Source: Candidatus Poribacteria bacterium (GTDB lineage Bacteria; Poribacteria; WGA-4E; JAJDTR01). From it: a DNA stretch of 64,000 bases. Location of the stretch: NCBI GenBank assembly GCA_965232235.1, contig OZ246960.1:3948479-4012478 (forward strand), in the 5' to 3' direction. A program made the translations under genes and the position numbers. This document shows positions 1-42,260 of the stretch, one piece after another. The notes below the pieces were generated by a model. That model ran no database searches and was not told where the DNA came from. It was given only the letters and a program-made list of their open reading frames with translations. Within the stretch, counting starts at the first letter, position 1; each line of letters begins with the position of its first letter.

Positions 1-1
1 C

Positions 2-8860: not shown

Positions 8861-8872
8861 CCCGCAGGTATA

Positions 8873-17880: not shown

Positions 17881-18366
17881 GTGCTATCGGAGACGGTCGT
17901 GAATAAACGAAAATCAGTGTATCTTGCAAATCCCTACGGTTTCTCGGAACAACAGCGGTGCACATTGCTCCCAGCCCTGATTGAGGCATTGGAAGCAATC
18001 GGCTTGGAAGTATGGGAGCCATTCGCGCGGAACAACAATGAAGATACCTCGGTGTCCGGTTGGGCGTACCGAATCGGGCAGGCGGACAAGCGCGATGTGG
18101 TAGAGACGGATGCGATTTTCGCTGTTGTAAACGGTGTTCCGCCCGATGAGGGGGTTATGGTGGAATTGGGGATTGCGATCGCGCTTGGGAAACCCACGTT
18201 CCTGTTTCGAGACGACTTTCGACGCGCCGCCGATTCTGACGAATACCCGCTTAACCTGATGGTTTTCGCCGGACTGCCTCGTCTCGGATGGGAGCGATAC
18301 TACTTCAAATCAATAACTGAGATTTCATCTCCCGAAAAAGCACTCGTATCTTGGGCGCAGGAGTAA
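17881..18366 (+). CDS. nucleoside 2-deoxyribosyltransferase (NDT/Rcl-like) family protein
   Basis: Motifs are SVYLANPYGF and DEGVMVELGIAIALGKPTFLF, the latter being the D-x-G...E-x-G-x-A-x-A-x-GKP catalytic-Glu signature. Alternative GTG start at 17899 with a GGAG RBS. Confidence 0.7.
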   Translation: MLSETVVNKRKSVYLANPYGFSEQQRCTLLPALIEALEAIGLEVWEPFARNNNEDTSVSGWAYRIGQADKRDVVETDAIFAVVNGVPPDEGVMVELGIAIALGKPTFLFRDDFRRAADSDEYPLNLMVFAGLPRLGWERYYFKSITEISSPEKALVSWAQE

Positions 18367-18409
18367 TCCATACCTAAATTGAATTGCAATTAAACAAATT
18401 GGAGGCATC

Positions 18410-19615
18410 ATGAAACAGATTAGCGGTGGAATAACGGCTGTTCCCGGTATCCGAGCATCGGGCGTGCACGGCGGCTTAAAGCCGGATGAGCAGAAGGATG
18501 TTGCGTTGATAGTTGCAGATGCACCGGCTGTAGCTGCGGGAGTATTTACACGAAATCGTGTATGCGCTGCAACCGTTCTGCTTTCCCGCGAACACTTGAA
18601 CAACCCGGTCGCCCAAGCAATCATCGTCAACAGCGGTAATGCAAATGCTTGCACCGGAGATCAGGGATTGGACAATGCTCGAAAAATGGCAGCCTTGGTC
18701 GGCGAGCAACTCAACGTAGAACCGGAAAACGTATTGGTTTCTTCAACGGGCGTGATCGGTGTACAATTGTCAATGGATGCAATCGAAAAAGGCATTCAGA
18801 GGGCTGCCGCTACGTTGCGTAATGATGGCGGACACGATGCGGCACAAGCCATTATGACCACAGACACCGTGCCGAAAGAGGTCGCGGTGGAAGTTGAAGT
18901 CGGTGGACAGACGGTGCGGATCGCCGGAATGACAAAAGGGGCGGGGATGATTGCACCGAACATGGCAACTATGCTTGCATTTCTGGCGACGGATACGAAG
19001 ATTTCTGGAGCGCCGCTACAGGAAGCTCTTCGGAGGTCCGTCGACATGTCGTTCAACCGCGTAACGGTTGACACCGACAGCAGCACCAACGATACAGTAC
19101 AGATTTTGGCGACCGGCGCGGCAGGCAATCCTGAAATCTCCGATGCATCTGGAGATAGCTACGACGCATTTTGCACAGGGCTTGAGTTTGTCTGCATCGA
19201 GTTGGCGAAGAAGATTGCGCAGGACGGTGAAGGCGCCACAAAAATGATCGAAGTAGCGGTCAAGAATGCGAAGAATGAATCTGAAGCAGAATTAGCGGCG
19301 CGAGCCATCGCCGAATCCCCGCTTGTAAAAACTGCCGTTTTCGGTAGGGATGCCAACTGGGGACGAATCATGATGGCGGTCGGAAAATCTGAAGCTCGGT
19401 TCGATCCCTACGAAGTGGATATTTGGCTGGGTGACTACCAACTGGTGAAGAAAGGAATGGACTCCGGTTTTGATGAGGAGAAGGCGGTACAACTTTTCTC
19501 TGAGGACACCGTGGTAATCACTGTAAATCTAAACGCCGGCGATGCAGACGCGACGATGTGGACCTGCGACTATTCCTACGATTATATCAAGATAAACGCG
19601 GATTATCGGACATGA
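18410..19615 (+). CDS. argJ: bifunctional glutamate N-acetyltransferase/amino-acid acetyltransferase (ornithine acetyltransferase)
   Basis: ArgJ signature block GMIAPNMATMLAFLATDT...TVDTDSSTNDT. Length 401 aa. Confidence 0.9.
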   Translation: MKQISGGITAVPGIRASGVHGGLKPDEQKDVALIVADAPAVAAGVFTRNRVCAATVLLSREHLNNPVAQAIIVNSGNANACTGDQGLDNARKMAALVGEQLNVEPENVLVSSTGVIGVQLSMDAIEKGIQRAAATLRNDGGHDAAQAIMTTDTVPKEVAVEVEVGGQTVRIAGMTKGAGMIAPNMATMLAFLATDTKISGAPLQEALRRSVDMSFNRVTVDTDSSTNDTVQILATGAAGNPEISDASGDSYDAFCTGLEFVCIELAKKIAQDGEGATKMIEVAVKNAKNESEAELAARAIAESPLVKTAVFGRDANWGRIMMAVGKSEARFDPYEVDIWLGDYQLVKKGMDSGFDEEKAVQLFSEDTVVITVNLNAGDADATMWTCDYSYDYIKINADYRT

Positions 19616-19640
19616 AAACGCGACGAAGGGCGACTGCTTC

Positions 19641-19665
19641 GTGCCCCTTCAGTACGAAGGGGCAC
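19641..19665. terminator. GC-rich hairpin GTGCCCCTTC-agtac-GAAGGGGCAC between convergent genes
   Basis: Perfect 10-bp stem 26 nt after the argJ stop, in the gap before the convergent - strand gene. U-tract is weak. Confidence 0.4.
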
Positions 19666-19789
19666 AGCCATTACGCAAATAACTCATGTTAAGAGGATTT
19701 GAAACTGCCCCGGAAACGTATTTGCAGGTTAGATTTCTTCAAGAATATTGGATTCTCTTGCGATGTCTCTTAACGTGAGACTTTTCACA

Positions 19790-20788
19790 TCAATCTTCGA
19801 ATGCTGCATCAAATGCGACATCGGACGGTTCGAAGTCATATGCTTTGACCGCAGCACATGATTCGCGTGCACCGTGCTCGCGGTCCATGCCGCTGTCCTC
19901 CCACTCAATCGACAGGGGCCCATCGTGCCCGATGCGGTTCAACGCTCGGATAATCTCCTCAAAGTCGATATTCCCGCGACCGATTGAACGGAAATCCCAA
20001 TAGCGCTGACCATCCCCGAATTCCAAGTGTCCGCCGAACACACCGGAGAGACGCGGGGTGGATGACCACCACACATCCTTCATGTGCACATGGTAGATGC
20101 GGCTGCCGAGACGCTCGATGAACGCCACATAATCAACCCCCTGATATCCGAGGTGGCTGGGATCGTAGTTGAAACCGAAGGTCTCGCGCCCGTCAAGCGC
20201 TTCGACCGCGCGTTCGGCAGTCACAATGTCGAAAGCGATTTCGGTCGGATGAACCTCAAGACCAAACTTGACACCTACTTCGTCGAACACATCAAGAATT
20301 GGATTCCAGCGATTGGCGAAATCCTCGTAGCCCGCATCGATTTGGGCGGGATCGTTCGGCGGGAAGGAATAAAGCAGGTGCCAGATGCTGCTGCCCGTAA
20401 ATCCGTTAACCACGCTCACTCCCAGTTTTGCCGCCGCGCGGGCAGTCGCCTTCATTTCATCGGCGGCGCGTTGACGAACACCCTCCGGGTCGCCATCGCC
20501 CCATATATTTGGGGCGACAATGGCTTGATGCCGGCTGTCGATATTGTCGCAGACCGTCTGGCCCACAAGATGGTTACTGATTGACCAAACTTTAAGTCCG
20601 TACTTGGCTAGAAGGTCGTGTTTCCCCTGACAGTAATCGGGGTCGTCCAAGGCTTTATCTACCTCGAAATGGTCGCCCCAGCAAGCCAACTCCAGGCCGT
20701 CAAACCCCCAGCCGCTTGCTTTCTGCGCTAGCTCTTCCAGTGTCATGTCCGCCCACTGTCCGGTGAACAGTGTAACAGGTCTTGCCAT
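19790..20788 (-). CDS. sugar phosphate isomerase/epimerase (xylose isomerase-like TIM barrel) family protein
   Basis: GAAGGAGG lies 7 nt upstream of the ATG. It has TIM-barrel metal-site-type motifs ([26 protein letters not shown]). Confidence 0.8.
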
Positions 20789-20904
20789 CTTGATGCCTCC
20801 TTCGAATCAATTATATGTTATCCAATACGGATAAATCGTCTCCACAATTATTGCATACTCGGCACGATTTGGGTAGTGCGCGTCCGACAGTGCTGAATTG
20901 CGCG

Positions 20905-22077
20905 CTAAACGGGCGCCGTATAACTTGCGTCAATCCAGGCGCGTTTTGTACCGCTTTCGACCGCTTTATGTATGAAATGAACACCTCGTGCTCCGTCCTG
21001 CACCGTCGGAAAGTCGGTGTCGAATTCGCCCGGTTCCTCGCAGGAAATCTTTGCCGCCATGGTGCGTGTAGCATTGACGTAGATATTCGCGAACGCCTCT
21101 ATGAATCCTTCTGGATGGCCAAACGGAAGACGGGAGTTGTGTTGCGTGATTTCGGCGACATAGTCATTTCCTCGTTTGTAAACCTGTTCGGGGCCATCCG
21201 GAAAACGAACGTAGAGGTAGTTCGGATTTTCCTGATGCCAATCCAGTGAGGCGTCGGTTCCGTAAATGCGAATGCGAAGGTTGTTTTCCTCTCCCACTGA
21301 CACCTGCGATGCGTACAGGATTCCTCTCGCGCCATCTTCGTAACCCACTAAGACATTGCCATCGTCTTCCAATTTTCGTCCCGGTACAAACGTTGTCAGG
21401 TCGGCGCAGATTTCCTCTATTCCCAAACCGGTAATGTAGTGCGCGAGGTTCTCCGCGTGGGAACCGATGTCGCCAATACAGGAAGACACACCCGATCGGT
21501 TCGGATCTGTCCGCCAGACGGCTTGTTTGGCGCCTTCCCCTTCCAAGAGTGTTGCTAGCCATCCCTGCGGGTATTCGACCACAATTTTTCGAACTGTTCC
21601 GAGCTGCCCGCCTCGAACGAGTTCTCGTGCCTGCTTGACCATCGGGTAGCCGGTGTAATTATGCGTTAGTGCGAAGACGGCGTCATGTTGCGCCACCAGC
21701 CGGCATAATTCCTCTGCGTCCTCTACTGTCGTCGTCATTGGTTTGTCGCAAATGACGTGGAATCCGGCTTCGAGGAAATTCTTCGCCGCATCAAAATGTA
21801 CGTTATTCGGCGTGACGATAGACACGAAGTCAATTCGATCGCCTTCGGGTAATTGGCTTTCCTTCTCCGCCATCTCCTGGTATGACCCGTACACACGGCC
21901 CGCGTCTAGCAAAAGCTCTTCGCCCTGTTGGCGTGATTTGTCCGCAGATGAGGAGAACGCGCCCGCGACCAGCTCAATCTCGCCGTCAAGTGCCGCCGCT
22001 TGTCGATGGACAGCACCAATAAACGCGTCCGGACCACCCCCTACCATCCCGTAACGTATTTTTCTTCCGAGTGGCAT
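20905..22077 (-). CDS. Gfo/Idh/MocA family oxidoreductase
   Basis: The start is moved to the internal ATG (MPLGRKIRYGMVGGG...) with GGAG 8 nt upstream. The ORF-track start at 22221 adds 48 aa with no support. The Rossmann motif is IRYGMVGGGPDAFIG. Confidence 0.85.
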   Translation of the reverse strand: MPLGRKIRYGMVGGGPDAFIGAVHRQAAALDGEIELVAGAFSSSADKSRQQGEELLLDAGRVYGSYQEMAEKESQLPEGDRIDFVSIVTPNNVHFDAAKNFLEAGFHVICDKPMTTTVEDAEELCRLVAQHDAVFALTHNYTGYPMVKQARELVRGGQLGTVRKIVVEYPQGWLATLLEGEGAKQAVWRTDPNRSGVSSCIGDIGSHAENLAHYITGLGIEEICADLTTFVPGRKLEDDGNVLVGYEDGARGILYASQVSVGEENNLRIRIYGTDASLDWHQENPNYLYVRFPDGPEQVYKRGNDYVAEITQHNSRLPFGHPEGFIEAFANIYVNATRTMAAKISCEEPGEFDTDFPTVQDGARGVHFIHKAVESGTKRAWIDASYTAPV

Positions 22078-22323
22078 ATTGGTATCTCCTTCAATGTTAT
22101 GTATGTCAACAATCGTGTTGACCAAATTATTTCGAGACTGTTTTTGTTTGTCCGATCTAGGCAACAAATCACTGCACCCAAAACACCGGTGCAGTATAGC
22201 ACGGAGGTGGGTTGTTGTCAATCACATAAACCACCTGAAGGGTGAAGGTCCCTGTAGGAGCGACCTCCCGGTCGCGATTGCATTGTAAGGTGCGATCAAC
22301 CGATACCATTCCGATAAACCGAT

Positions 22324-22390
22324 CTCCGCACTGCAGCGCAGTGCCATGTCAATAGAAACACGATGCGTTCATCCTAGCACTCCAGCGGAG
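22324..22390. repeat. dispersed ~67-bp element, copy A (CTCCGC-ACTGCAGCGCAGT-..-ATGTCAATAGAAAC-..-CACTCCAGCGGAG)
   Basis: It is nearly identical in order and content to 38789..38855. It is bounded by the inverted hexamers CTCCGC/GCGGAG. The adjacent motifs CTGTAGGAGCGACCTCCCGGTCGCGATT and GCGATAGAAATCCC recur at 41.8-42.2 kb. Confidence 0.5.
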
Positions 22391-22726
22391 ATCAAGCGAC
22401 TGGATAAGGAGTGCGATAGAAATCCCCAATGCGAATCATACGGCGCGATAGAGATCTTCCGCACACCAGCCTTCCTATGCAGTTGTACGAACGGCCTACC
22501 GGTCGTGATTTCCCAGCTTCATCTGTCTTGGGCTTGCATTTCCGCGTGTTTTGTGACATATTTATACTCACGTCCATAGGTAAGGACGCATCAACTAACC
22601 ACGACAAGACAATGCGACTGGATATGACATAACTGTTCCGTACGTAACAAGGCGAAACTTTGCGACATGCCACGCCGAATCAAGTCGCAACTACACAAAA
22701 CACGTCTAATTTGCATGGAAGCACAG

Positions 22727-22770
22727 AAGGCGCGTTGGGTATTCTTACCTGTCGCGCCTTTTGTGTTTGC
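22727..22770 (+). terminator. rho-independent-type terminator/insulator upstream of the defense gene
   Basis: AAGGCGCG-(18 nt)-CGCGCCTT stem followed by TTGTGTTTG. Confidence 0.4.
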
Positions 22771-22771
22771 A

Positions 22772-22800
22772 TTGACTCGGTGGCTAACAATATGTATGAT
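22772..22800 (+). promoter_or_regulatory. sigma70-like promoter TTGACT-N17-TATGAT
   Basis: The -10 element ends 43 nt upstream of ATG 22844. Confidence 0.45.
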
Positions 22801-22843
22801 TGCCTTGCACACTCCTGAGAACGGTAACGGTTTGGAATAGACA

Positions 22844-25800
22844 ATGAATAACGAGACAATATTCACCGTCAAAAAGAAACATCTTGACCTACTAGACGAG
22901 GACACAGCAGTTGAGTTCTTTAGCAAACTGCTATGGGCTGAAGCGAACAGACTTGGTCCAGGAACCTGCAAGATTAATGTGCCGAGCCAAACCAAAATCC
23001 CTGATGGTGGAATTGATGCTACCGTTGACGCAGACCGACTTGCGAAACAAAGCGATATAATTGCCCCTGGCAAAAACGGTTACCAAATCCGATCAGGAAC
23101 TGCCTTTAAGCCGTGGCGGGATGGGGATATTCGGAAAGAACTCTTTAAGAAAGGAAGTCCTAAAACCCCTGAAAAAGAGAACTTAAGAGAAAGCATCAAG
23201 GATTGCCTTGATGAATGTGGTATTTACGTTTTAGTTTGCACTGGAATTGATTGTCTTGTTCCTCCCAACCGGAAAAAGGCCTCCAAACTCATTAAAGATT
23301 ACCTAGAAACGTGTGGTTATCCAAAGGCGAAGGTTGAGGTGTGGAGCCAAAACACCCTCCGTTGCTTTCTTGAGTCGTTCCCATCACTGTCTTTGTGGGT
23401 CAATGGACGCAATAGCGCAAAGTTTCAAACGCATGACAGTTGGTCGCGAGATGCGAGCATGCAACGTCCATTTGTTCATGGAGAATCTCAGGATGAATTG
23501 ATTGAAAATCTTCGGAGTGGTTTACGGCGCGCCGATAATAAGGATCCTATGTTAGTGTCCGGGCGGCCCGGCATCGGCAAGACCAGGCTTGTTTTGGAAG
23601 CAACAAACGCCACAGACCTAGCGCCTCTAGTGATTTACGCCCCAGCTGATCAATTCCTTCATGACAAATTTCTAATGGATGAACTTTGCAACGATGAAAA
23701 CGACTTTTCCGCGATTGTGGTAATTGATGATTGCAATCTCCATAGCCGATCAGAAATTTTGGATAAACTGAAGTATCGTGGTCCGAAAATCAAACTCATT
23801 ACCATCTATAATAACCACGAAGAAGCTGCAGGAGATATTACGCCCTATGTTCCCCAACCTCTAGGCGAGGACCAGATTCGCAGCATCATCGAGCAACATA
23901 CGAACGTCTCCGACAACGAAGACAGACGATGGGTTGAGCTCTGCAGTGGATCGCCGAGAGTCGCTCATGTCGTTGGTTGGAATCGGGCAAATTATCCAAG
24001 GGATGTACTCGCCTCTCTGAGCACCGTCAATATCTGGGAGGGCTATATTGTCTCAGTTGACGATCCAAGTCAGGAAAGAACGGAACAACGCAGACGAATA
24101 CTCCGATACATGGCACTGTTTAAGCAATTCGGTTTTGAAGACCCTGTTGGCGAAGAAGCCAAAGCCGTTTCCAAAAAGATTGAGGAGGCGGATCCCCAGA
24201 TTACGTGGACGATATTTCAGGAAATCGTTGATAACCTTAAGAAACGTAAAATCCTTGACGGAGATTATACACTTGCCATCACGCCGAAAGCCCTTCAGAT
24301 TAAGTTATGGATAGAATGGTGGGATATCTATGGCAGGACGTTTGACCTAGATGAATTTATTCAAAACTTTCCCTGCGATTCAAAATTGGTCGAGTGGTTC
24401 TATGAGATGTTTTCGTACGCATCTGAGTCTGGAGTGGCATTAAGCGCTGTGAAGGATCTTCTTGGCCCAGACGGTCCATTCCAACAAAGAAAATATCTGC
24501 AGACAAACCTCGGAAGTAGCTTTTTCTTGGCACTGACTGAAGCAGCCCCGGAATCCGCTCTAGAATGTCTTAAGAAAACGGTTGAGACATGGGATGGAGA
24601 AACCCTATCGCAATTCGTTGGATGTACTTGCGTAGTATTGGCACTTGAAAAGATTGCTGTGTGGAACCGCCTGTTTACAGATGCTGCGGAATTACTCCTT
24701 GCGCTTGGTGACAGTAGTTTTGCTGGACTCTTTTCGCCGGCACCTGGAGGCGTGGCACCGACGGAAGCGTCTCCGAAAGAACGGTTTCCTATCTTGGAGG
24801 GCGCGTTTGAATCGGAATCAAAAGCAAAACGTGTTTTGGCATTGAAGGCGAGTGATGTGGCTTTAGAATCAAGCTATTTCTCGCGATTTGGGAATCCAGA
24901 ATATCAAGGCTTACGTCAGAAACCCAAACTATGGACGCCTAAAACGGAGGGCGAATTTCGGGAGGCACTTCGCCGAGTATGGAAATTACTAGATAGACAG
25001 CTAGCGCGTTTGCCCAACGATGAATGTAAAAAAGGCGCGGCAATTCTGCTAAAACGTGCGCGCGAGATGGTGAGAATCCCAAATCTGGCCAAGATGGTTG
25101 TGGAAACGGTCGCTACAATTGCAAAAGAAGAATATGTAAATAAAAAACACGTTATTGGGACCATTAACCAAATCCTACACTACGATGGCGACAATATACC
25201 TGCGGAAACCCGAGGACTATGGGAGCAACTCATGGGCCAATTGGTTACACCTGACTTTCATTCCATGATGAGACGGTACGTTGGTATGGAATTGCTTGAA
25301 GACCTCCAACTTGGCGACGACCAAAATTACGTAGATCAGGCGCAACTTCAGATTGAAAAGCTCGCCCAACAAGCCATTAGCAATCCATCACGCTTGCAAT
25401 CGGAACTGGCTTGGCTTGTCACAAGCGAGGCCAAGAAGGGATACAATTTCGGGTATGAACTTGGGAAACGAGACAACGGCTTTTCCTTGCTGCTGACGCT
25501 TCTTAAAGCCCAACGAAACGCGGATGACAATGCAAGTACAGCTTTTCTGGGCGGTTATTTCCGTGCGCTCTTTGAATCGGACGCTGACCGGCGAGAAGCA
25601 CAACTTGAAGCGATGATTGATGATACCAAACTAAAACCGCTGATTCCAGCATTGACTTCCCGGTCGGGCCTTACAGATGAGGCGGGATTGCGTCTTCTCC
25701 GCCTCGCAAGAGATGGTACCATGGGTATAAATGACTTCAAAACCTTCACCTATGGCAAAGCCGTTGACGGTTTGTCTAGTGAAATCGTCACGACGTGGGT

Positions 25801-26644
25801 TGAATTTCTACTAGGCGTCAACGACCAAGCAGGTGCATCAATTGCACTGAACCTTTACCACTGCTACTATATCTTCCAGAAACCAGAACGGGATTTACCA
25901 CTTGATGTGACATTCCGATTGCTTCGTCATCAATCCCTGTTTGAAGGATTAGACGGGTATCAATTCGATTCTACCATGACCGCTTATTATTGGACAGAGA
26001 TAGCCAAAGTCTTCCCGCACCTTGATTCCGAAAAGGAATTGGAACTTTCGGAGTTAATGCTTTCCCATTTTGGCGAGGACGGTTCAATTGTTGGCCCTTA
26101 CTCGCGAACATGCTCGGTGCTTGATGAATTGACGCAACAGTATCCCGCTGAGGTCTGGAAGCAGGTTAGTGGACTCTTACAGAGCCAAGGGCATTCTTCA
26201 AGGACCATTGCTCTAGAAAAATGGCTCGGAGAAGGAGCCTCCTGGGGACGAGAAGAATCTAAACCTGCCCTGCTACGAATCCCGTACAAAATAATCTGGG
26301 AGTGGATTGACGAGGATATAGAAAAACGTGCGTGGTATTTCGCTTATAGGCTGGTTCCTATAACCCATTCATCGGAGGAATGGATGATTTCTATGGTAAG
26401 ATCGTTCCTCATCCGCTACGGCAGTCGCAAGGAGGTAAGAAGCGGTCTTATGAGTAACTATTTGTCTGGAGTATCGTTTGGCCCTGCCAGCTCGCACTTA
26501 CAAGCAAAAAAAGAGAAGCTGCTTCAGATAAGGGACATTGAAGATGAAGATGGCGATAATGTCAGGCGTTGGGTTGATGAATTTGTGGCGGAACTGGAAG
26601 GGGGAATTGGACGGGAAACGATGCGTGAGGAGAGAGAACATTAA
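22844..26644 (+). CDS. STAND-type P-loop NTPase with an N-terminal Mrr-like (PD-(D/E)xK restriction-endonuclease fold) domain and a long C-terminal helical sensor region; Avs-like antiviral protein candidate
   Basis: The N-terminus matches the Mrr-cat pattern (AVEFFSKLLWAEANRLG...IPDGGIDATVD...NGYQIRSG...GIYVLVCTGID). Walker A is GRPGIGKT. Walker B is AIVVIDDCNL. About 900 aa of predicted alpha-helical repeats follow. It has a lower GC than its neighbours. Confidence 0.75.
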   Translation: MNNETIFTVKKKHLDLLDEDTAVEFFSKLLWAEANRLGPGTCKINVPSQTKIPDGGIDATVDADRLAKQSDIIAPGKNGYQIRSGTAFKPWRDGDIRKELFKKGSPKTPEKENLRESIKDCLDECGIYVLVCTGIDCLVPPNRKKASKLIKDYLETCGYPKAKVEVWSQNTLRCFLESFPSLSLWVNGRNSAKFQTHDSWSRDASMQRPFVHGESQDELIENLRSGLRRADNKDPMLVSGRPGIGKTRLVLEATNATDLAPLVIYAPADQFLHDKFLMDELCNDENDFSAIVVIDDCNLHSRSEILDKLKYRGPKIKLITIYNNHEEAAGDITPYVPQPLGEDQIRSIIEQHTNVSDNEDRRWVELCSGSPRVAHVVGWNRANYPRDVLASLSTVNIWEGYIVSVDDPSQERTEQRRRILRYMALFKQFGFEDPVGEEAKAVSKKIEEADPQITWTIFQEIVDNLKKRKILDGDYTLAITPKALQIKLWIEWWDIYGRTFDLDEFIQNFPCDSKLVEWFYEMFSYASESGVALSAVKDLLGPDGPFQQRKYLQTNLGSSFFLALTEAAPESALECLKKTVETWDGETLSQFVGCTCVVLALEKIAVWNRLFTDAAELLLALGDSSFAGLFSPAPGGVAPTEASPKERFPILEGAFESESKAKRVLALKASDVALESSYFSRFGNPEYQGLRQKPKLWTPKTEGEFREALRRVWKLLDRQLARLPNDECKKGAAILLKRAREMVRIPNLAKMVVETVATIAKEEYVNKKHVIGTINQILHYDGDNIPAETRGLWEQLMGQLVTPDFHSMMRRYVGMELLEDLQLGDDQNYVDQAQLQIEKLAQQAISNPSRLQSELAWLVTSEAKKGYNFGYELGKRDNGFSLLLTLLKAQRNADDNASTAFLGGYFRALFESDADRREAQLEAMIDDTKLKPLIPALTSRSGLTDEAGLRLLRLARDGTMGINDFKTFTYGKAVDGLSSEIVTTWVEFLLGVNDQAGASIALNLYHCYYIFQKPERDLPLDVTFRLLRHQSLFEGLDGYQFDSTMTAYYWTEIAKVFPHLDSEKELELSELMLSHFGEDGSIVGPYSRTCSVLDELTQQYPAEVWKQVSGLLQSQGHSSRTIALEKWLGEGASWGREESKPALLRIPYKIIWEWIDEDIEKRAWYFAYRLVPITHSSEEWMISMVRSFLIRYGSRKEVRSGLMSNYLSGVSFGPASSHLQAKKEKLLQIRDIEDEDGDNVRRWVDEFVAELEGGIGRETMREEREH

Positions 26645-26670
26645 TCGACCATAATCTCAAGGAAAACCCC

Positions 26671-27210
26671 ATGGCAAACTATCAAGAACTCGCAAATCTC
26701 GTATGGAACGTAGCCGACGATGTCCTCCAAGGCTTATTCAAACCCCACGAATACGGCGACATCACCCTCCCGTTCCTCGTCCTGCGCCGTCTGGACTGCA
26801 TCCTAACGGAAGACGACCGAAAAGACAAAGCCATTGACGTCCACAACCGCTTCAAAGATGGCGTCCCCGAAGAATCCCTGCCCCGGATTATTCTGAACGA
26901 GACGAAATCCAGTTTCTACAACACCTCCCGCTACGACCTCCCCCGACTAAAAGCCGACCCCAACAACATCCGCCTCAACTTCACCAACTACCTCAACGGC
27001 TTCACCAAGGATGTGCGGGACATCATCGAAAACTTCAACCTCGATCAGTTCATTGACCGGCTTTACAACGCAACCTATGATTCTTTCCAACCGTGGACGG
27101 ATGGCTCAGCGCACCATAACGTCCGCAAGATTTCCATAGCGTTTCTGATGCCCGATTCTGGAATGCTCTGCAACGAAGTTACTTCCTCGGAGACAGACTG
27201 TGCTTTATGA
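26671..27210 (+). CDS. DNA N6-adenine methyltransferase N-terminal (HsdM_N-like) domain fragment; probable gene remnant
   Basis: AAGGAAAA RBS 26 nt after the upstream stop. The first ~135 aa match the methylase N-terminal domain (LVWNVADDVLQGLFKPHEYGDITLPFLVLRRLDCIL...FYNTSRYDLPRL...NFTNYLNGFTKDVRDIIENF). No catalytic motifs follow. The last ~45 codons run antisense to the 3' end of the convergent methyltransferase gene. Confidence 0.5.
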   Translation: MANYQELANLVWNVADDVLQGLFKPHEYGDITLPFLVLRRLDCILTEDDRKDKAIDVHNRFKDGVPEESLPRIILNETKSSFYNTSRYDLPRLKADPNNIRLNFTNYLNGFTKDVRDIIENFNLDQFIDRLYNATYDSFQPWTDGSAHHNVRKISIAFLMPDSGMLCNEVTSSETDCAL

Positions 27211-30065
27211 ATCTCAAACATGTACGACACCACAGCGTCAATCTCCTGTCGCACAGGATCTATGGCTGCATCCTTGGCCGGACGCAATGATTGGTTAGAC
27301 AGAACGTCAAATCGCGCCGCTGCCATTTCGAGGATCGCGTCCGACAGTCTGTCTAGGCGCGGGCACGGGATCTTCCTCAAAGCCCCAATCTGCGTCGTCG
27401 ACCGCCCATTTTGCGTCCGTTGACCCTGTGTCCAGTGTACGATCATTCCAAGCGTCGAGTTCCACCACAGCGCAAACGCCTTCCGCACTCGGACATCCTC
27501 ATGTATGAGAGCAGTCCATGCCCGTCCGCCAAGCGCGGGGTGCGCGGTCGACGCAGACAATAGCGCCTGGCTCGTCCACCTAAGATTGCGGGCGTAAAAC
27601 AATGTGCTGACATACAATCTCATCTGTTCGCCCTGCTCCGTCGACCCCACCCCGGGTGGTGCCAATCCCTTGTGGGTCGGTAATACTCGCAGCGAGCGCT
27701 GCGTTTTGGAGGATGCTTCCCACAAAGCTCGATCTACTCCAATCGCATCGGTCTCGCTCGTTACCGGATGAAATTCAAATGCACCTATCGGCTCATTCCC
27801 CTTCGGATGTCCGATTAAGTGGTGCGTTGGTCCCACATGAAAGATGTCTTCAATGGTCCCCATCTCCAATCCCAAAGGAATTGGTGTCCCCGCAATATGA
27901 TCGAGCGTCCCCCGTGTAAGCGCATCGGCGGCCAGTGCCAACCCTCCATGGATTACACCAACCATGTTCCACGGCAATCCTTCACCATTCGCATACATCA
28001 CTGTGATGCACCCAATTTCGCTGTTACCGACGGTAATTGGGTGTGTCATGTTGGTCGCGGTGCACTGCGCCTTCGCTTGCTCAATTGCCCTCGTCACTTC
28101 TCTCGCCTCGCCGTTCCGAGTGCACGGTTCATAAAGTGTCACACAATGCAGCAAAGCACGATCCTTCTTTTGAGGATGCTTGCGCCGCGTTGCAACTAGC
28201 AACATCTCCTCCATCCCAGTGTCTGCCGAAAAACTTGCCTGTTTGAGCGAAGCCCCGCTTGCCGTCGCAATCAGAACAATATCCGTGAATTCCGCTTCGA
28301 CCATTCGCCGCGTTTCCGTCCATGTATCGGCGAAAGCGCATGTGAGGGGTAATACAAACCCAATTCGCCCTGTTCCTGCCTTGACCTTATGCTTGGCTAG
28401 CACAAGAAATGACGCAGCCATCCCAGCTCGCAGCCGCGCGGGTTTGTCGTTCACTAGGACGCCCCATCGTTTCTGACAGCGCTTCCGATCCTCTTCAGTC
28501 AAACCCTTCAAATCAAAAGCGCTCTGGCCGCCGCGTGTCCTAGAATACGGCGGATTCATAAGAATCCAGTCCACGCTGCCGTGACGTACTTCCACGCTTG
28601 ACGCCTCGTGTTGGACCCCACCAGCCCTACCGAGACTTTGCCCGAACAAATCTTCTGTAAACGTAGCCTCTAGATATTCGAGCGCACCAGTCAGTGCTGT
28701 CCTACCACCAACCTTTACCCAGCCAATCTGCGTTTCACCGTAACTTTCCCCTTTCCCTATATTAGCGAGACTTGAGGAAGTCAGGTGCGCTGCAATCGGA
28801 CTAATGTCAGTGCCCCTTAACCCGTGTTCCATCGCGCCGCAATGTAGTTCCGCGACAGAGTCCTCCGTTCCTCCGGCCCATTCATGCAGAGTTTGTACGC
28901 GCAAATAGCCTTCCCTTAAAAGCGTACCCGTACCGCAGGCCAAATCCGCGATAATCGACCGGCGCAGCAAGTCTGACCGGCCCCACTCCGACTCTAGTTT
29001 GTCCGATTGCCGAATCGTTAGACTCGCAAGCAACTCCGCTGTCGCCGGCTGCGTATAGAACGCCGCGCTCTCCTTCCGATCTGAAGCAAGCTTAGGAAAT
29101 AACTCCGCCCCCACGTTTATGTGTTGCCCCAAATCCGCATCCTCAATCATACCCACCGCTTCAATCAACCGTTTGAGAGCTTCGGTCGTTCCGGCACGAT
29201 GAAAGTCACCGCAAACTGCTAGCGCATTGACAGCTGGCTCAAAAATCGACCGCCAGTTGATTTCGATTATTCGCCGCCACGTTTCGACTTGCTCGAATGG
29301 ATTAGGAGTGACACCGGATACCGTCCGAACCGGTGGAATGTCATTAACTCCCTGAACTTGCAGCCGTTGCTGGATCAATAGCGCGTTTAACCAGAGTACC
29401 ATAGTAGTCTGTAATCCCTCCAATGGAGAGTTTTGCCCCACTTGTCCCGCAATTTTCCGTTGCGCGTTCTCGTGGAGAGTCGATTTCAGCGTTTCCGCAG
29501 CTTGTTTCACTAACTGAGCTACCTCTGCTGCGCGGGCCTCCACCACTTCATTAGGCATCGCGGCGGCGGCGATCAGTCGCCTAGCATCATGAACCGTGCC
29601 TTGAATGAACCCTTTAGCTGGCCACCGACGTGTAGTTCCGTCACTCAACCCGCTTTGGTGCAGTGCATACGCAATCTGCTGCAATCCGTCCTTTAACTTC
29701 GCGTATACGGAATCTGCAGAAAGTTCTCGATATTCCTCAGGAATGTGGACCGCCAGAACCGCCAGCAGCGGTCTGCCTCCTCGTGTCGTTTTCTGACCTA
29801 GCCTGTCCTGAGCATCCCTATCGGCATCTGCCGCATTGAATGATGCCTCAATTGCTGCGGCTGGCATCTGCGGGTCATCGATCAAGATATCCGCTCGACC
29901 GGAACTCAGAGTACCCGTCCGTTCTGCCAGAATGTATTCATCAGAATGGCCGAGCCAGCGAGCCTCTGTTTCCGCCAACACCTTGCCAAACTCAATGTTG
30001 AACGTGTGTTCGTGGAGTTTCCCTTTCGATTGCTTAACTAAGTACAGTTGTTCCGTTTCTGGCAT
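27075..30065 (-). CDS. MmeI/PglX-family (Type IIG/IIL-like) N6-adenine DNA methyltransferase, possibly a methyltransferase-nuclease fusion
   Basis: SAM motif I reads ADLACGTGTLL. Motif IV reads WILMNPPYSRTRGG. The N-terminus resembles the MmeI-family nuclease module (EFGKVL...GRADILIDD...AIEAS). A ~490-aa C-terminal target-recognition-type region follows. GC is higher than in the neighbours. Confidence 0.8.
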   Translation of the reverse strand: MPETEQLYLVKQSKGKLHEHTFNIEFGKVLAETEARWLGHSDEYILAERTGTLSSGRADILIDDPQMPAAAIEASFNAADADRDAQDRLGQKTTRGGRPLLAVLAVHIPEEYRELSADSVYAKLKDGLQQIAYALHQSGLSDGTTRRWPAKGFIQGTVHDARRLIAAAAMPNEVVEARAAEVAQLVKQAAETLKSTLHENAQRKIAGQVGQNSPLEGLQTTMVLWLNALLIQQRLQVQGVNDIPPVRTVSGVTPNPFEQVETWRRIIEINWRSIFEPAVNALAVCGDFHRAGTTEALKRLIEAVGMIEDADLGQHINVGAELFPKLASDRKESAAFYTQPATAELLASLTIRQSDKLESEWGRSDLLRRSIIADLACGTGTLLREGYLRVQTLHEWAGGTEDSVAELHCGAMEHGLRGTDISPIAAHLTSSSLANIGKGESYGETQIGWVKVGGRTALTGALEYLEATFTEDLFGQSLGRAGGVQHEASSVEVRHGSVDWILMNPPYSRTRGGQSAFDLKGLTEEDRKRCQKRWGVLVNDKPARLRAGMAASFLVLAKHKVKAGTGRIGFVLPLTCAFADTWTETRRMVEAEFTDIVLIATASGASLKQASFSADTGMEEMLLVATRRKHPQKKDRALLHCVTLYEPCTRNGEAREVTRAIEQAKAQCTATNMTHPITVGNSEIGCITVMYANGEGLPWNMVGVIHGGLALAADALTRGTLDHIAGTPIPLGLEMGTIEDIFHVGPTHHLIGHPKGNEPIGAFEFHPVTSETDAIGVDRALWEASSKTQRSLRVLPTHKGLAPPGVGSTEQGEQMRLYVSTLFYARNLRWTSQALLSASTAHPALGGRAWTALIHEDVRVRKAFALWWNSTLGMIVHWTQGQRTQNGRSTTQIGALRKIPCPRLDRLSDAILEMAAARFDVLSNQSLRPAKDAAIDPVRQEIDAVVSYMFEIHKAQSVSEEVTSLQSIPESGIRNAMEILRTLWCAEPSVHGWKES

Positions 30066-30350
30066 TGACTTGTCTCTCTCAAGTAGAATTCAGTAAAGCG
30101 TGAATTAAGCCGAGGTGTGCGGCGAATTGATTCTGTAGGCCTGTTCCGTTCGTTTACCACGGTCGCATCGCACGTATCCCAACCCAGATATACCACCATT
30201 CACCGCTCGGTTATAAGCTCTCTCCATCATTTCATGAATCGTCATCACTGTCAAGTATTAGCGCTACAGTGTCGAACTGTGCAAATCTAGAAAGTACCCG
30301 CTTTTAGACCACCTTCGCTTCCTTAAGGTATAATTGCAAACCGGCGTTAC

Positions 30351-30379
30351 TTGACAAAAGCAGCCAATCATGGTATTGT
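30351..30379 (+). promoter_or_regulatory. sigma70-like promoter TTGACA-N17-TATTGT
   Basis: It is placed ~24 nt upstream of the RBS of the small ORF at 30403. Confidence 0.4.
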
Positions 30380-30402
30380 ATAAGGGAAAGGAGGTGAGAA
30401 AA

Positions 30403-30621
30403 ATGGCCGAAAACACGGACGAAGAAAAATGGGAAAAGGTTTTCATGATTGTTGGAGCACAATCTTCTGAAGGAAGGCACAAGATAGAGATATTTGAGCC
30501 ATCTGGGAAACCGATTAGCCAAGGTAAACTGAGCAACAGAAGAGTTGAGAGTGGGATTAACAACTACAGCGACAGAACACAATATTATGCTGTTATTGAT
30601 TTCCCAAAGGTTCAAGAATAG
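30403..30621 (+). CDS. small hypothetical protein (72 aa) in a self-contained promoter-RBS-terminator unit
   Basis: AGGAGGTGA lies 7 nt upstream of the ATG. A strong terminator follows 12 nt after the stop. No recognisable domain. The ORF-track start at 30370 would translate the RBS. Confidence 0.55.
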   Translation: MAENTDEEKWEKVFMIVGAQSSEGRHKIEIFEPSGKPISQGKLSNRRVESGINNYSDRTQYYAVIDFPKVQE

Positions 30622-30632
30622 TGAACAATACT

Positions 30633-30655
30633 GGCGGGGGGTACCGCCCCCCGCC
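30633..30655. terminator. strong intrinsic terminator hairpin GGCGGGGGG-tacc-CCCCCCGCC
   Basis: 9-bp all-GC stem plus a G-U closing pair, followed by A/T-rich sequence. Confidence 0.6.
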
Positions 30656-38187: not shown

Positions 38188-38475
38188 TGACGACTGATAA
38201 TTTGACAGGTGCTTGGTTCATTGGTTCGATTATTTGGCACACCAACCCTAGCTTCTCACGCCGCTTTTTCACAACTGCCAAATCTTTCGCATTCTCTTTT
38301 TCGCTTCAGCGGGGCGCTACGTCTGTAGCAAACCGTAAACCCCACTTGCACTCCAGCCTGCGATTACGCGAGCAATGCACGAGTCATCAAGGGAGATCAA
38401 TCGAAGGGACAGATCAACTGAGCGAATAACGCAGCCGGAAGTAAATCCTGTGCCCGGTCTTTGGTTAATCAATAC

Positions 38476-38656
38476 GGCAAACTGCCATTAAATCCTCGAT
38501 TCCCTCCCTCACCGCCCACCACCCCTCCCAATCCGTGAAATCCGTGTAATCTGCGTAATCTGTGATTCAGACCACCCACCACCATTTCCACTCTCACCGC
38601 CGCCCCTAATCCTGCCAATCCAAAAATCACATGAATCACAGTTCAGACAATCCCCT
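38476..38656. repeat. ~180-bp direct repeat, copy 1 (strand-asymmetric, C/A-rich, G-poor)
   Basis: It is ~90% identical to 38881..39069. It contains the short tandem unit AATCCGTG / AATCTGCG. Confidence 0.6.
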
Positions 38657-38788
38657 TCACCAACCACCCCGTCGCCACTCTGCCCCGTCCTCTACAGGTC
38701 GCGATGCCCCACTCCCCCGTGAAATCAAACCGGCGGACAAAGAGCGCTATCCGAATCATCAACCCCGACACAATTCCCATATTCCAAT

Positions 38789-38855
38789 CTCCCCACTGCA
38801 GCGCAGTACAATGTCAATAGAAACGAACGATACCCGTACACGCACTCCAGCGGAG
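38789..38855. repeat. dispersed ~67-bp element, copy B
   Basis: It matches 22324..22390. It lies between the two ~180-bp direct repeats. Confidence 0.5.
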
Positions 38856-38880
38856 TGCAATGTTTTTGGTTTATCCCTGC

Positions 38881-39069
38881 GGCAAACCGCCATCAAATCC
38901 TCAGTTCCCTCCCCCGACTCCCACCATCCCTCCCAATCCGTGAAATCCGTGAAATCCGTGTAATCTGCGTAATCTGTGCTTCAGACCACCCACCACCATT
39001 TCCACTCTCACCGCCACCCCTAATCCTGCCAATCCAAAAATCACATGAATCACAGTTCAGACAATCCCC
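38881..39069. repeat. ~180-bp direct repeat, copy 2
   Basis: See copy 1. This copy has one extra AATCCGTG unit. Confidence 0.6.
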
Positions 39070-39532: not shown

Positions 39533-40093
39533 ATGAAACACGTTCAAATCAAACTCACGGACGAAGAGCGTGCCGATACCATCTATCAACGGGTCTGGCA
39601 CAATACCACCACAACTGCTATTGTCGACGCCCTTATAAAGGCGCATCCCGAATGGAAGGATGTGCCTCGGCGAATAATCCAAGACGCCACGCGAACCTGC
39701 AATCCGTTCCACAGTAAATTCGCGGAAAAATGGAAGCCAATCTATGAAAGCACTCTCAAGCACTTTCAAGCAGAGCGAGAAAGACACACCCAAGGCACGT
39801 CATTACACGCCTCCATGGCAATTTTTAAGCTAATCGACAAAGTGCTTGAAGGTGTCGATCGCGTCGAATTACAAAGCCCGAATGATGTGCTGTCAATTGC
39901 CCGTAGTATTGCGCCGATTAGAAAAGTCCTAACGCTGAGCATCAGCGCCAACTCAAGTGACGAAGATAATGACGAAGATAATTCCAAGCAAGGACATGAT
40001 GCAAGCGATGCCGCACTGCGAACGCTGGAGAGTCTTGGACACTGTACGCAAGAAGATGAAAAACAATCAAGAAGACGAAGCCGCGATGATTAG
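39533..40093 (+). CDS. hypothetical protein, positional candidate for terminase small subunit
   Basis: AGGAG lies 7 nt upstream of the ATG. Its stop overlaps the terminase large-subunit start (ATGATTAG). It has an acidic, Ser/Asp-rich C-terminus. No direct homology is recognised. Confidence 0.5.
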   Translation: MKHVQIKLTDEERADTIYQRVWHNTTTTAIVDALIKAHPEWKDVPRRIIQDATRTCNPFHSKFAEKWKPIYESTLKHFQAERERHTQGTSLHASMAIFKLIDKVLEGVDRVELQSPNDVLSIARSIAPIRKVLTLSISANSSDEDNDEDNSKQGHDASDAALRTLESLGHCTQEDEKQSRRRSRDD

Positions 40094-41768
40094 GGCGCAC
40101 GCCGGCTACCGGTGGCCCGAGCTTTTCGTCTGGTTGTACATCAGAAACATCAGCTACCGCATGCTAGAACTCAAACCATTCCACATCCAAATCCTCAACG
40201 CCATCAGACCCGGCGAATACGGTAAGCAGATTAACATTCAAGCCCCGCGCGGCACCGGCAAAACCACCCTCGTCAACCGCCTAATCCCCCTATGGCGAAT
40301 CTGCTACAAAGCATTCGATCTCGCCATGGGCCGCCAACCCGAAGAATTCATCCTCATCGTCGGTCGCGACGCAGACAAGGCGCGCCAACGTATTTCCGAA
40401 ATCCGCGAAGTGCTCGAATACAACCCCCTAATCAGACGCGACTTCGGCGACCTCGTCGGTTCTCCATGGACAAAAAACGAAACCGACACCCGCAACGGCA
40501 TCGGACTGAGACCTCTCGGACGCGGTTCCTCCCCTCGCGGCGCCCTCCTCGGCGATGTGCGGCCAACACTCAAGCTCTGCGACGACATCGAAGACCCCAA
40601 GCGCTGCCTCAATCCCAAGCTACGGCAAGAAGACAGAGAATGGTTCATGACCGACTTCATGTACGCCGGTGATCTCGGTAGCACGCATTCCAACACCATG
40701 ATAGTCGATACCGTCAAACACCCCGAATCCCTCTCCGAACACCTCCGCACCCTACCCGGTTGGCGGACGCTGCGGTATGAAGCCGTCCGCGATCCCAAAG
40801 ACATCTACCACCCCACCGCCGAGCACCTCTGGAAAGAGTGGGAACGTATCTACAGCGACACGACGCTCGACGACGAGCAACGCCAACGGCAAGCGCAAGA
40901 ATTTCACGAGGAACACCGCCGCGAAATGGATTCCGGCGTGCAGATGCTATGGCCCGAGCAGCTGCCGTACCTCCAGGTCCGCAAAGAAATCGTCGAGCGC
41001 GGCTACCACAACGTCATGCGCGAACTCCAGAACGACGCCCGCGATCCGTCAATGGCATTGTTCAACATGGATAACGCGCTGACGTTTGCCGTCACCGACG
41101 AAGGCTTTCGCCGTTCCGATGGGCGTGTTGTGCCATGGCACGATATGGGCGGCTTCGTAACATACCTCGACACCATGGGCGGGCGCGATGCCGCCGAAAA
41201 TAGTTTCGCGTGTGCTGTTGTCGTCGTTTGGGAACCGCTGATTGGCGGTCAATCGCTTAACCCCGATTCGCTCTCCGGTGTGAACGGATACATACTGCTC
41301 GCCTGGCTCGACCGCGTCGCACTCACCGAGCAAATGGAGCGCGCCATCCTCCTCGCCCAGCGCGCCGAGGCGATGTTGGCGCCGGCGCATCCCAAATCCC
41401 ACTTCGTTTGCGAACAGCGCCCCGACAAAGACGGCACCATCCGCAAATCGACCGACGATGCCTTCCGTGCCATGAAAGAGCGCCACCGCTTTGAACGTAG
41501 AATCATGTATCACGACCAGCACCAGAACAAAGAAGACCGTATAGCCACCCTTGAGCCAGCCATAGCCAACGGATGGCTCGCCTTCAACGAGCGGGACTTG
41601 CCTCCCGAATTTTGGACCCAGTTTCGCCAATTCCCGTCGGCGGACCACAACGACGCCCCCGACGCCGTCCAAGGCGCGGTACGATCGCGCATCACCACTA
41701 CCGCGAAACAACGCGCCGATCTATCTGCCGCGCGTCGATTCAACCGCAACTCCGTCGTGCGACTGTAA
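40086..41768 (+). CDS. terL: phage terminase large subunit (ATPase plus RNase-H-like nuclease)
   Basis: Q-motif/Walker A region is HIQILNAIRP...QAPRGTGKTT. Nuclease motifs are YLDTMGGRDAAENSFACAVVVVW and FPSADHNDAPDAVQGAV. The start ATG overlaps the upstream stop. GC is high. Confidence 0.8.
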   Translation: MIRAHAGYRWPELFVWLYIRNISYRMLELKPFHIQILNAIRPGEYGKQINIQAPRGTGKTTLVNRLIPLWRICYKAFDLAMGRQPEEFILIVGRDADKARQRISEIREVLEYNPLIRRDFGDLVGSPWTKNETDTRNGIGLRPLGRGSSPRGALLGDVRPTLKLCDDIEDPKRCLNPKLRQEDREWFMTDFMYAGDLGSTHSNTMIVDTVKHPESLSEHLRTLPGWRTLRYEAVRDPKDIYHPTAEHLWKEWERIYSDTTLDDEQRQRQAQEFHEEHRREMDSGVQMLWPEQLPYLQVRKEIVERGYHNVMRELQNDARDPSMALFNMDNALTFAVTDEGFRRSDGRVVPWHDMGGFVTYLDTMGGRDAAENSFACAVVVVWEPLIGGQSLNPDSLSGVNGYILLAWLDRVALTEQMERAILLAQRAEAMLAPAHPKSHFVCEQRPDKDGTIRKSTDDAFRAMKERHRFERRIMYHDQHQNKEDRIATLEPAIANGWLAFNERDLPPEFWTQFRQFPSADHNDAPDAVQGAVRSRITTTAKQRADLSAARRFNRNSVVRL

Positions 41769-41789
41769 AACTGATTCAAAATCTCAGCT

Positions 41790-42260
41790 ATACGTAGCGT
41801 GGAATCAAGAGAGTGAATAGCGACCGCGATAGAGATCCCCTGCCCACCATTCCATATTTCCGTCGGGTGGGAGGGGCATCTTGCCCCGATTGATTACGAA
41901 ACGATCAACTGACCGAATCGTATCAAGCGAATGAATAATAAGCGATCAACCGACTGATTAAGGAGGGCGATAGGAATTCCGCCTCTGTAGGAGCGATCTC
42001 CGAATCGCGACAATCCTAAAACGAGTCATCAATCCGCTATATGTAGGGTGGAATCAAGCGAATGGATAGTGAGCGATCAAGGGAGATCAAACGAACGATC
42101 AAAGGAATGAATAATGACTGCGATAGAAATCCCATAGAGATCTTTGCGCGATAGAAAGTCCTGATAGAAATCCCTCGACCTCCCGGTCGCGATTTCCTCT
42201 TTGCGCGTAAGTTCTGGACTGAACTAAACAATTACGTAAATCTTGTAGCGATCAACTGAG
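41790..42260. repeat. cluster of short dispersed word repeats (GCGATAGARATCCC, CTGTAGGAGCGAYCTCC..TCGCGA, GATCAAGGGAGATCAA, GCGATCAACYGA)
   Basis: The same words occur at 22250-22420 and 38390-38420. They are irregularly spaced and therefore not a CRISPR array. Confidence 0.5.

Follow-up and report, generated by a model that had tools for sequence, protein, structure and literature searches.

A pair of direct DNA hairpins as a probable module of mosaic intergenic repeats in Candidatus Poribacteria

We analysed a 64,000-nt stretch of a Candidatus Poribacteria genome (contig OZ246960.1, positions 3,948,479 to 4,012,478; hereafter the window), in which an original prediction had singled out a short element occurring twice, once upstream of a defence-like gene and once upstream of genes for the small and large terminase subunits (terS and terL). 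Poribacteria are uncultured sponge symbionts. The element is probably a single type of module within an intergenic mosaic repeat specific to this lineage, which resembles the bacterial interspersed mosaic elements (BIMEs) and the Neisseria intergenic mosaic elements (NIMEs) and acts as DNA hairpins.

Both predicted copies were found, in the same orientation on the + strand (copy A, 22328-22390; copy B, 38793-38858). Their alignment contained three invariant 14-nt blocks, CACTGCAGCGCAGT, ATGTCAATAGAAAC and GCACTCCAGCGGAG, the last two separated by a 17-nt stretch that differs between the copies. A 31-nt pattern, CACTGCAGCGCAGTNCNATGTCAATAGAAAC, matched the window at 22329 and 38794 only and was absent from 100 dinucleotide-preserving shuffles; exact matches to GCACTCCAGCGGAG were likewise confined to 22377 and 38842. 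The length of ~67 bp first given to the element proved too short, because the likeness between the copies runs ~35 bp further left (to 22295 and 38758) and makes a conserved stretch of ~95-100 bp in each.

Outside the window, the pattern CTGCAGCGCAG-N5-TGTCAATAGAA was scanned against one genome per species for 185,579 species and matched 11 times at 9 loci, all within five metagenome-assembled genomes of Candidatus Poribacteria. An nhmmer profile of 13 strict copies recovered more degenerate copies within the same loci, and three additional copies were present in European Nucleotide Archive contigs retrieved via neighbouring proteins. The total is ~23 copies at 13 loci, all of them intergenic and all in Candidatus Poribacteria. 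Viral contigs scanned with the element patterns gave no match; in JGI metagenomes the first pattern had no match and the second had five, which appeared to be chance matches. Literature searches on Poribacteria repeats or terminases returned nothing specific and no description of Poribacteria intergenic repeats. Exact-protein look-ups for strain variants of locus B (SBP protein, DUF805 protein, P0001 and P0033) gave no match.

A full copy spans ~80 bp and contains two 17-bp perfect palindromes, R1 (GCACTGC-AGC-GCAGTGC) and R2 (GCACTCC-AGC-GGAGTGC), which lie in direct orientation 49 bp apart and differ by one compensatory pair (CTGC/GCAG in R1, CTCC/GGAG in R2). The small palindrome noticed at the outset, CTGC-AGC-GCAG, is the core of R1. 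The hexamers CTCCGC and GCGGAG, which had been taken for inverted ends, do not hold up as such: on the left, copy B has CTCCCC and many relatives have CCCCGC, whereas GCGGAG on the right belongs to R2, as the right arm of its internal palindrome CTCC-AGC-GGAG. Each palindrome has CC(G/C) to its left and is followed by (A/C)ATGT(C/G)AAT. On the 3' side of R1 comes an invariant ATGTCAATAGAA box and then a filler of 19±1 nt, fixed in length and free in sequence. Within this mid box ATGTCA.TAG was invariant in 20 aligned copies, part of the box having belonged to the search pattern. The first 14-nt block is a two-mismatch relative of GCACTCCAGCGGAG and hence an internal direct repeat at a distance of 49 bp, and a third, decayed unit stands upstream in L003 and L006 (L numbers denote loci compared with the window). 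The element is thus a tandem of two to three ~49-bp units, each composed of a 17-bp palindrome, (A/C)ATGT(C/G)AAT and a filler.

Conservation is concentrated in the palindromes. Among 12 strict copies, mean pairwise identity was 91% for R2, which lay outside the search pattern, as compared to 41% for the filler. Pairing within the palindromes was kept in 92.7% of cells, with changes on both sides at 8 of the 14 base pairs, and no shuffle equalled it. R1 and R2 were predicted to fold as two separate hairpins, each with a 7-bp stem and a 3-nt loop, and had folding energies of -7.1 to -7.2 kcal/mol as single-stranded DNA (ssDNA), like that of the repetitive extragenic palindrome (REP) at 22254.

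These properties bear on the proposal that the element is a small structured RNA. Acting at the RNA level, it would be a two-hairpin small RNA or a terminator or stabiliser at transcript ends, a role known for REPs (PMC3733652). In favour of this, shuffled sequences fold less well than either strand (z -2.2 to -3.9), the stems are maintained and some of their base pairs have changed on both sides, and R2 of copy B, like that of three relatives, precedes a T-rich run. Conservation is limited to palindrome symmetry, however, which cannot separate RNA from DNA; a putative third, middle hairpin within the filler was rejected, as it pairs in just 59% of cells. No Rfam family matched at gathering score across the whole window or, around both copies, even at E<=10. 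There is no consistent terminator, and no sigma70-type promoter lies inside the element or in a conserved flank although the host uses consensus promoters; a TTGACA within the element is an orphan on the minus strand without a -10 partner. Copy A moreover sits between divergent promoters, and the mosaic flanks leave the putative RNA without a fixed 5' or 3' end. We consider an RNA-level element improbable. Two further candidates were set aside by eye. One is TGGCAC-N5-TGC on the minus strand of copy A, which resembles a sigma54 site but is wrongly spaced and missing from most copies. The mid-box ATG opens reading frames of 77 and 50 codons in the two window copies, but this frame is not conserved, since it meets stops after 9-10 codons in L001, L003 and L009.

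The repeat-filler-repeat layout, the constant filler length, the repeat stem-loop and a 3' end in ...GAAAC would also fit a degenerate CRISPR-like mini-array, in which a 32-nt repeat with the 3' end ...ATAGAAAC would be followed by a 17-nt spacer and then by a terminal repeat in degenerate form, and would yield a regulatory guide RNA. The fillers, however, fall in related subfamilies and resemble each other as well as the filler of the third unit, so they are not independent acquisitions, and none has a match of at least 12 nt elsewhere in its own locus. True CRISPR spacers are unrelated and ~26 nt or longer, between identical repeats and usually with cas genes. With interrelated fillers of only 17-19 nt, two to three units, no true array of this repeat in the 185,579 species genomes, no Rfam CRISPR-DR match and no cas gene among the window open reading frames (ORFs) scanned, the element is not a CRISPR array, and we find the mini-array scarcely credible.

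The copies lie in tracts built of several repeat families. All instances of these motif families in the window are held by three intergenic tracts (tract A, 22250-22515; the tract of copy B, 38380-39070; and tract C, 41769-42260), and nearly all are on the + strand. The companions of the copies are GTAG-tagged REP hairpins, ~35-bp ATCAA...GATAGA...ATCC modules and C-rich stretches, and at every locus all module types point one way, regardless of gene direction. Three alternatives occur as the left flank of the core: the window copies both have a ~33-bp module, ATCAAC...GATAA...ATCTCC, and other copies have a GTAG-tagged REP of the form GTAG-GAGCGAyC-TCCn-GGTCGCGA or another repeat unit; the right flank likewise has several. 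The ~35-bp ATCAA...GATA.A...ATC.CC module appears to have a variant in ATCAACCGATACCATTCCGATAAACCGATCTCC, the module to the left of copy A. C-rich direct repeats flank copy B on both sides, the second being the usual leader before terS-terL (ter) cassettes, and L004 carries an analogous duplicated unit of element plus C-rich sequence. Tract C has no hairpin-pair copy; besides the REP at 41987-42010 it has another that is apparently split by nested modules (~42040-42192).

Comparison of closely related strains showed that the tracts change through gain or loss of whole modules placed in or beside hairpins. Modules of ~27-37 bp are present or absent among strains that are 97-99% identical; they lie in the arms or loops of REP-like hairpins and are often nested several deep. 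L017 and L019 differ from L018, with flanks ~99% identical, by discrete 27-36-bp modules within REP hairpins (ATCAA..GA.TG.ATAA....GCGATAGA.ATCC, at 9700-10560), with 1-3 nt replaced and no duplication. L020 and L021, which are 97% identical to 12790-22261 of the window, carry 75-140 bp of such modules inside the REP that stands at 22254-22277 in the window. The hairpin pair itself is also interrupted: a 37-bp module breaks R2 of copy A after GGAG in the window as well as in L020 and is of the same family as the indels that separate L017 and L019 from L018, whereas L006 has the intact GGAGTGC-AATGCG. The comparison also showed that the tracts coincide with gene-order breaks and variable islands.

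On these data the element is a new family among the mosaic intergenic repeats of BIME/NIME type in bacteria: its palindromic units are interleaved with other motifs, and the composition varies across loci and strains. As in the REPs and BIMEs of Enterobacteria and Pseudomonas (PMC3733652), short extragenic hairpin palindromes are clustered with other motifs in mosaic tracts; R1 and R2 are able to form stem-loops as do REPs, which are palindromes of 20-40 bp, and true GTAG-tagged REPs are present in the element's own tracts. Unlike in REPs and BIMEs, the palindromes are direct and not inverted, a conserved box and fixed spacing lie between them, and the copy number is apparently low. R1 and R2 are not GTAG/CGTC REPs themselves, since they carry no such tag on either strand; a neighbouring REP does carry GTAG. 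REPINs, which are mobilised by REP-associated tyrosine transposases (RAYTs), consist of two inverted REPs that fold into one long hairpin (PMC3116915). The element shares with them two related palindromes with a spacer of free sequence, a non-autonomous nature and vertical persistence in a lineage. It is not a REPIN, however, because R1 and R2 with their 3' tails TGC(A/C)ATGT(C/G)A are direct repeats 49 bp apart that fold separately. A MITE-like or plain selfish repeat came closest among the three options of the original prediction, but the inverted ends of a miniature inverted-repeat transposable element (MITE) are not conserved, as the left hexamer varies among CTCCGC, CTCCCC and CCCCGC, and no duplicated target was seen, so a MITE it is not.

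Other mosaic systems offer partial parallels. NIMEs of Neisseria are RS blocks bounded by dRS3 repeats, 20-bp units that have terminal inverted repeats and on which a known recombinase acts. NIMEs are tied to genome plasticity and to foreign-DNA insertion. The Poribacteria tracts are similar in this association and in being long and intergenic with interleaved short repeat families, and differ in their sequences and module sizes and in that no dRS3 equivalent was identified here. The small dispersed repeats (SDRs) of heterocystous cyanobacteria (Elhai et al. 2008, cited in PMC3116915) are reportedly 20-40 bp long, present or absent at orthologous sites and nested in repeats or hairpins. They match the ~35-bp modules that interrupt R2 and the REPs; their sequences are unrelated, and the parallel applies to these companion modules and not to the hairpin pair. 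For the pair itself, a parallel is found in the ends of IS200/IS605-type elements and of their miniature derivatives, the palindrome-associated transposable elements (PATEs), with two similar direct subterminal hairpins, no terminal inverted repeats, no target duplication and a strong strand bias. The element has direct hairpins, no inverted ends, no target duplication and an orientation bias in common with them, but no TnpA, cleavage tetranucleotide or empty site was identified for it. In contrast to IS200/IS605, its ends are undefined because of the frequent third unit and the mosaic flanks. GTAG REPs inserted in small palindromes have been described, as have REPs interleaved with other repeats in the 'large mosaic intergenic regions' of Neisseria (PMC3733652).

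We propose that the palindromes act as DNA, extruded as single-strand hairpins that would be cis sites or stalling or landing sites, and that the hairpins may serve a strand-specific copy-and-insert process. The uniform orientation of the modules and the hairpin-directed insertions support a DNA-level mode of action. Candidates for the agent are an HUH/Y1 enzyme, of RAYT or IS200 type, that acts in trans and, alternatively, hairpin-stalled template switching or gene conversion between tracts. No RAYT/Y1-type transposase was seen among the window ORFs scanned, a genome-wide search not having been made. The element would not regulate its particular neighbours, and any effect on them would be generic, for example termination or mRNA-end protection as for REPs.

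Several observations weigh against this reading. At the loci compared, no empty site or target-site duplication was found for the hairpin pair, and mobility was seen only for the ~35-bp modules and REP-containing tracts. R1 and R2 lack a GTAG or CGTC tag. The strict pattern recovers just 2-4 copies per 6.5-Mb genome, apparently well below typical REPs. Copies within 1.3 kb of ter cassettes are above random placement (4 of 10 cassettes), an excess that shared hot-spot tracts can explain. Finally, the palindromes, mid box and spacing were kept while the filler diverged, a pattern that decaying selfish copies would not show and that fits a host-used site, for example a protein-bound one, at least as well.

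Such a host protein-bound site is the leading rival. A dimeric protein would occupy the two palindromes and a second factor perhaps the ATGTCAATAGAA box, so as to organise DNA or mark the borders of islands; the site would resemble the RIP/RIB form of BIMEs, which binds integration host factor (IHF), or sites of the matS, NBS or sopC type. Besides the 49-bp spacing and the contrast between conserved parts and free filler, it would account for R1 and R2 each retaining its own compensatory variant and for the position of the tracts at gene-order breaks. No candidate binding protein is known, however, and three assemblies have a truncated or replaced R2 at locus A, without any consequence that could be seen. 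The copies are also embedded in plainly unstable mosaic DNA, and the E. coli IHF consensus is unmatched by eye. We judge a host-used site, whether architectural or protein-bound, unlikely.

The genes beside the copies point away from a gene-specific role, since all copies are intergenic, their orientation is inconsistent and their neighbours are unrelated. The gene on the 5' side is divergent at some loci and co-directional at others, and on the 3' side there is a gene start or the end of a convergent gene. Neighbours of copies outside the window are mostly housekeeping genes, in either orientation, and include BKACE, amidohydrolase, uppS, NuoF-like and PD40 genes and one integrase. The window copies do lie several hundred bp upstream of + strand genes as predicted, 454 bp from the start at 22844 and ~675 bp from the terS start at 39533. 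Sigma70-type promoter-like sites scoring 10-11 of 12 are found at 22221-22193 (-), 22772-22800 (+) and 39239-39267 (+), adjoining the flanking genes and outside the element, and the first two place copy A between two divergent promoters. The 1266-aa protein downstream of copy A had been labelled Avs-like, but its sole PADLOC match was PD-Lambda-4_A (2.7e-21, residues 6-708); no Avs model matched, and Pfam gave just a weak AAA_16 match below cut-off.

A shared operator, with one transcription factor on both copies co-regulating the defence NTPase and the terminase genes, had been another of the proposals, and same-orientation palindromic sites do stand upstream of both genes in the window. They stand, however, 380-450 bp upstream of the promoter-like sites. 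L006, L020 and L021 all keep the locus A element beside the oxidoreductase gene, yet the 1266-aa gene of the STAND type is missing there and other DNA follows. Most ter cassettes lack the element, and the other copies flank housekeeping genes in both orientations. On these comparative data the operator is already largely refuted, and we regard it as very improbable. As far as the sampled loci allow, the copies are scattered without positional bias relative to genes, the outcome that the original prediction had named as speaking against it.

The terminase label of 40086-41768 was confirmed, its product matching phrog_38 'terminase large subunit' (1.9e-52, residues 25-552), with no Pfam match at 0.01; the 186-aa protein encoded upstream of TerL (39533-40093) had no match in any library scanned. 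TerL homologues with 55-100% identity are numerous in Poribacteria, and several contigs have 2-3. Of ten ter cassettes, those of the window, L003, L004 (on both sides) and L024 (a partial downstream copy only) have a copy within 1.3 kb, whereas those of L015, L016, L017-L019 and L023 have none within 6-8 kb on each side and are still bordered by the same kind of module tracts. With six of the ten cassettes lacking a copy, the link between element and terminase is one of shared neighbourhood in hot-spot tracts and not a requirement.

A larger rearrangement involves the same tracts. Tract A of L020 runs straight into sequence 95% identical to 41922-42101, so window and L020 differ by an indel of ~19.4 kb (22516-41921), with tracts A and C at its two ends. 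It contains genes for the PD-Lambda-4_A-like NTPase, an HsdM fragment, a 996-aa protein, PD40, LRR/dockerin and DUF805 proteins and terS-terL; no integrase lies inside it in the window. This indel, the proximity of copies to four of the cassettes and a copy that adjoins an integrase in L008 might suggest a site for the cassettes or for island exchange, either a pac/cos-like recognition site of the orphan terminase or an att-like recombination site. Direct repeats beside terS are typical of cosB/pac sites. Set against this are the six cassettes without a copy, the distance of most copies from any terminase and the lack of copies in viral contigs. Synteny breakpoints fall outside the element, 0-130 bp beyond it, and no obvious core is common to both ends of the 19.4-kb indel. 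Such a site seems to us quite unlikely.

The cassettes have features of their own. They are orphans, without other phage genes nearby (window 39239-41768; L003, L004, L015-L019, L023 and L024), set between a variable stretch with integrases, type I/ISP restriction systems, IS fragments and defence genes on one side and conserved operons (ABC sugar transporter, nuo, uppS) on the other. In their leader, downstream of a conserved consensus promoter, stands a long hairpin plus T-run with the inner palindrome CTGTTG-TCAAT-CAACAG, also present at L015 ~7275-7340, L017 ~7300-7360 and L024 ~5280-5340. From locus to locus the outer stem has changed in a compensatory way, as with CATTTGAGGC/GCCTTAAGTG vs CATTGGTGGC/CCACCAGTG, and the hairpin looks like a regulated terminator or attenuator. 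In L015 (10470-15424), a GmrSD_N-domain gene and a small ORF lie inside the nuo operon, between the genes for the 30-kDa and 49-kDa subunits.

Features of the window tracts and adjoining genes. All intervals are window positions; R1 and R2 are the two palindromes of each copy.
Feature	Position	Strand	Basis or remark
GTAG-tagged REP hairpin GTAG-GAGCGACC-TCCC-GGTCGCGA, left edge of tract A	22254..22277	+	ssDNA hairpin, -7.1 kcal/mol
Copy A left-flank module, class 1, ATCAACCGATACCATTCCGATAAACCGATCTCC	22295..22327	+	common to copy B, L002, L004, L007, L008
Copy A R1, GCACTGC-AGC-GCAGTGC	22328..22344	+	-7.2 kcal/mol as ssDNA
Copy A mid box, CATGTCAATAGAAAC	22345..22359	+	ATGTCA.TAG invariant, 20 aligned copies
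Copy A variable filler	22360..22376	+	17 nt from ...GAAAC to R2; 19±1 from ...ATAGAA
Copy A R2, GCACTCC-AGC-GGAG, truncated	22377..22390	+	final TGC (3 nt) replaced by insertion
37-bp inserted module ATCAAGCGACTGGATAAGGAGTGCGATAGAAATCCCC within R2 of copy A	22391..22427	+	absent from L006, present in L020
Displaced R2 tail AATGCGAATCATACGG, then motifs GCGATAGAGATCTTCC and CCAGCCTTCCTATGC	22428..22476	+	collinear with L006, L020
REP-like variant GTAC-GAACGGCC-TACC-GGTCGTGA, right edge of tract A	22485..22508	+	L020 homology stops at ~22515
1266-aa NTPase, PD-Lambda-4_A-like	22844..26644	+	own promoter 22772-22800
C-rich ~190-bp direct repeat, copy 1, with 9-bp tandem GTGAAATCC/GTGTAATCT	38470..38655	+	
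Copy B left-flank module, class 1	38758..38792	+	alignment with copy A and relatives
Copy B R1, CCACTGC-AGC-GCAGTAC, two outer pairs lost	38793..38809	+	
Copy B mid box, AATGTCAATAGAAAC	38810..38824	+	
Copy B variable filler	38825..38841	+	
Copy B R2, GCACTCC-AGC-GGAGTGC, intact, then AATGTTTTTGG	38842..38858	+	terminator-like in copy B only
C-rich ~190-bp direct repeat, copy 2	38875..39069	+	immediately upstream of ter promoter region
terS-like gene and terL	39533..40093 and 40086..41768	+	promoter 39239-39267; leader terminator hairpin 39380-39438
Tract C, downstream of terL	41769..42260	+	REP 41987-42010; several ATCAA...GATAGA...ATCC modules, all +

Other genes of the window include PD40 propeller arrays, GFO/IDH/MocA and xylose-isomerase-like enzymes and a leucine-rich-repeat (LRR)/dockerin protein, a content in keeping with Poribacteria; a tRNA/tmRNA search of the window found none. 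The listed TTG start at 22221 of the oxidoreductase gene (20905-22221, -) coincides with the -35 box of a strong promoter-like site (TTGACA-17-TATACT), so the true start lies further in; the L006 alignment starts at residue 16, and the gene called in L020 has 390 aa. Downstream of the NTPase gene, a 179-aa ORF (26671-27210) covers no more of a type I methyltransferase than its N-terminal domain (HsdM_N; PADLOC MTase_I, 4e-37), and a convergent 996-aa ORF (27075-30065) overlaps it and has only faint restriction/methylase-like matches; the pair (26671-30065) is probably the remnant of a restriction-modification system. The PD40 beta-propeller gene at 30835-31794 contains seven 132-bp tandem repeats, scored in six overlapping 300-nt segments, with 83-87% identity (69% for the last segment), which suggests recent blade duplication, and ~ten paralogous PD40 genes stand in a row at 1-9900.

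In a more far-reaching reading, a strand-specific 'micro-mobile DNA' system would be made up of three parts, namely the hairpin pair, the GTAG REPs and the ~35-bp modules, and its tracts would be the points at which Poribacteria genomes exchange defence islands and multi-copy orphan terS-terL cassettes. We hold this to be speculative, with a low probability; if true, elements of 35-80 bp would be written into or beside DNA hairpins with neither inverted ends nor target duplication. The main result is a corrective one: a motif present near both a defence gene and a terminase had suggested a regulatory link, but it is a repeat specific to this lineage and shares unstable intergenic tracts with them. 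The element itself is less unusual than two things nearby, the ~35-bp insertions with their nesting and the orphan terS-terL cassettes, present in multiple copies, at the borders of islands. The insertions into hairpins, seen among strains 97-99% identical, offer a tractable case for the movement of very small repeats. Because the tracts mark gene-order breaks and the turnover of defence genes, integrases and orphan terminase cassettes, they provide practical markers for island boundaries and strain typing in Candidatus Poribacteria.

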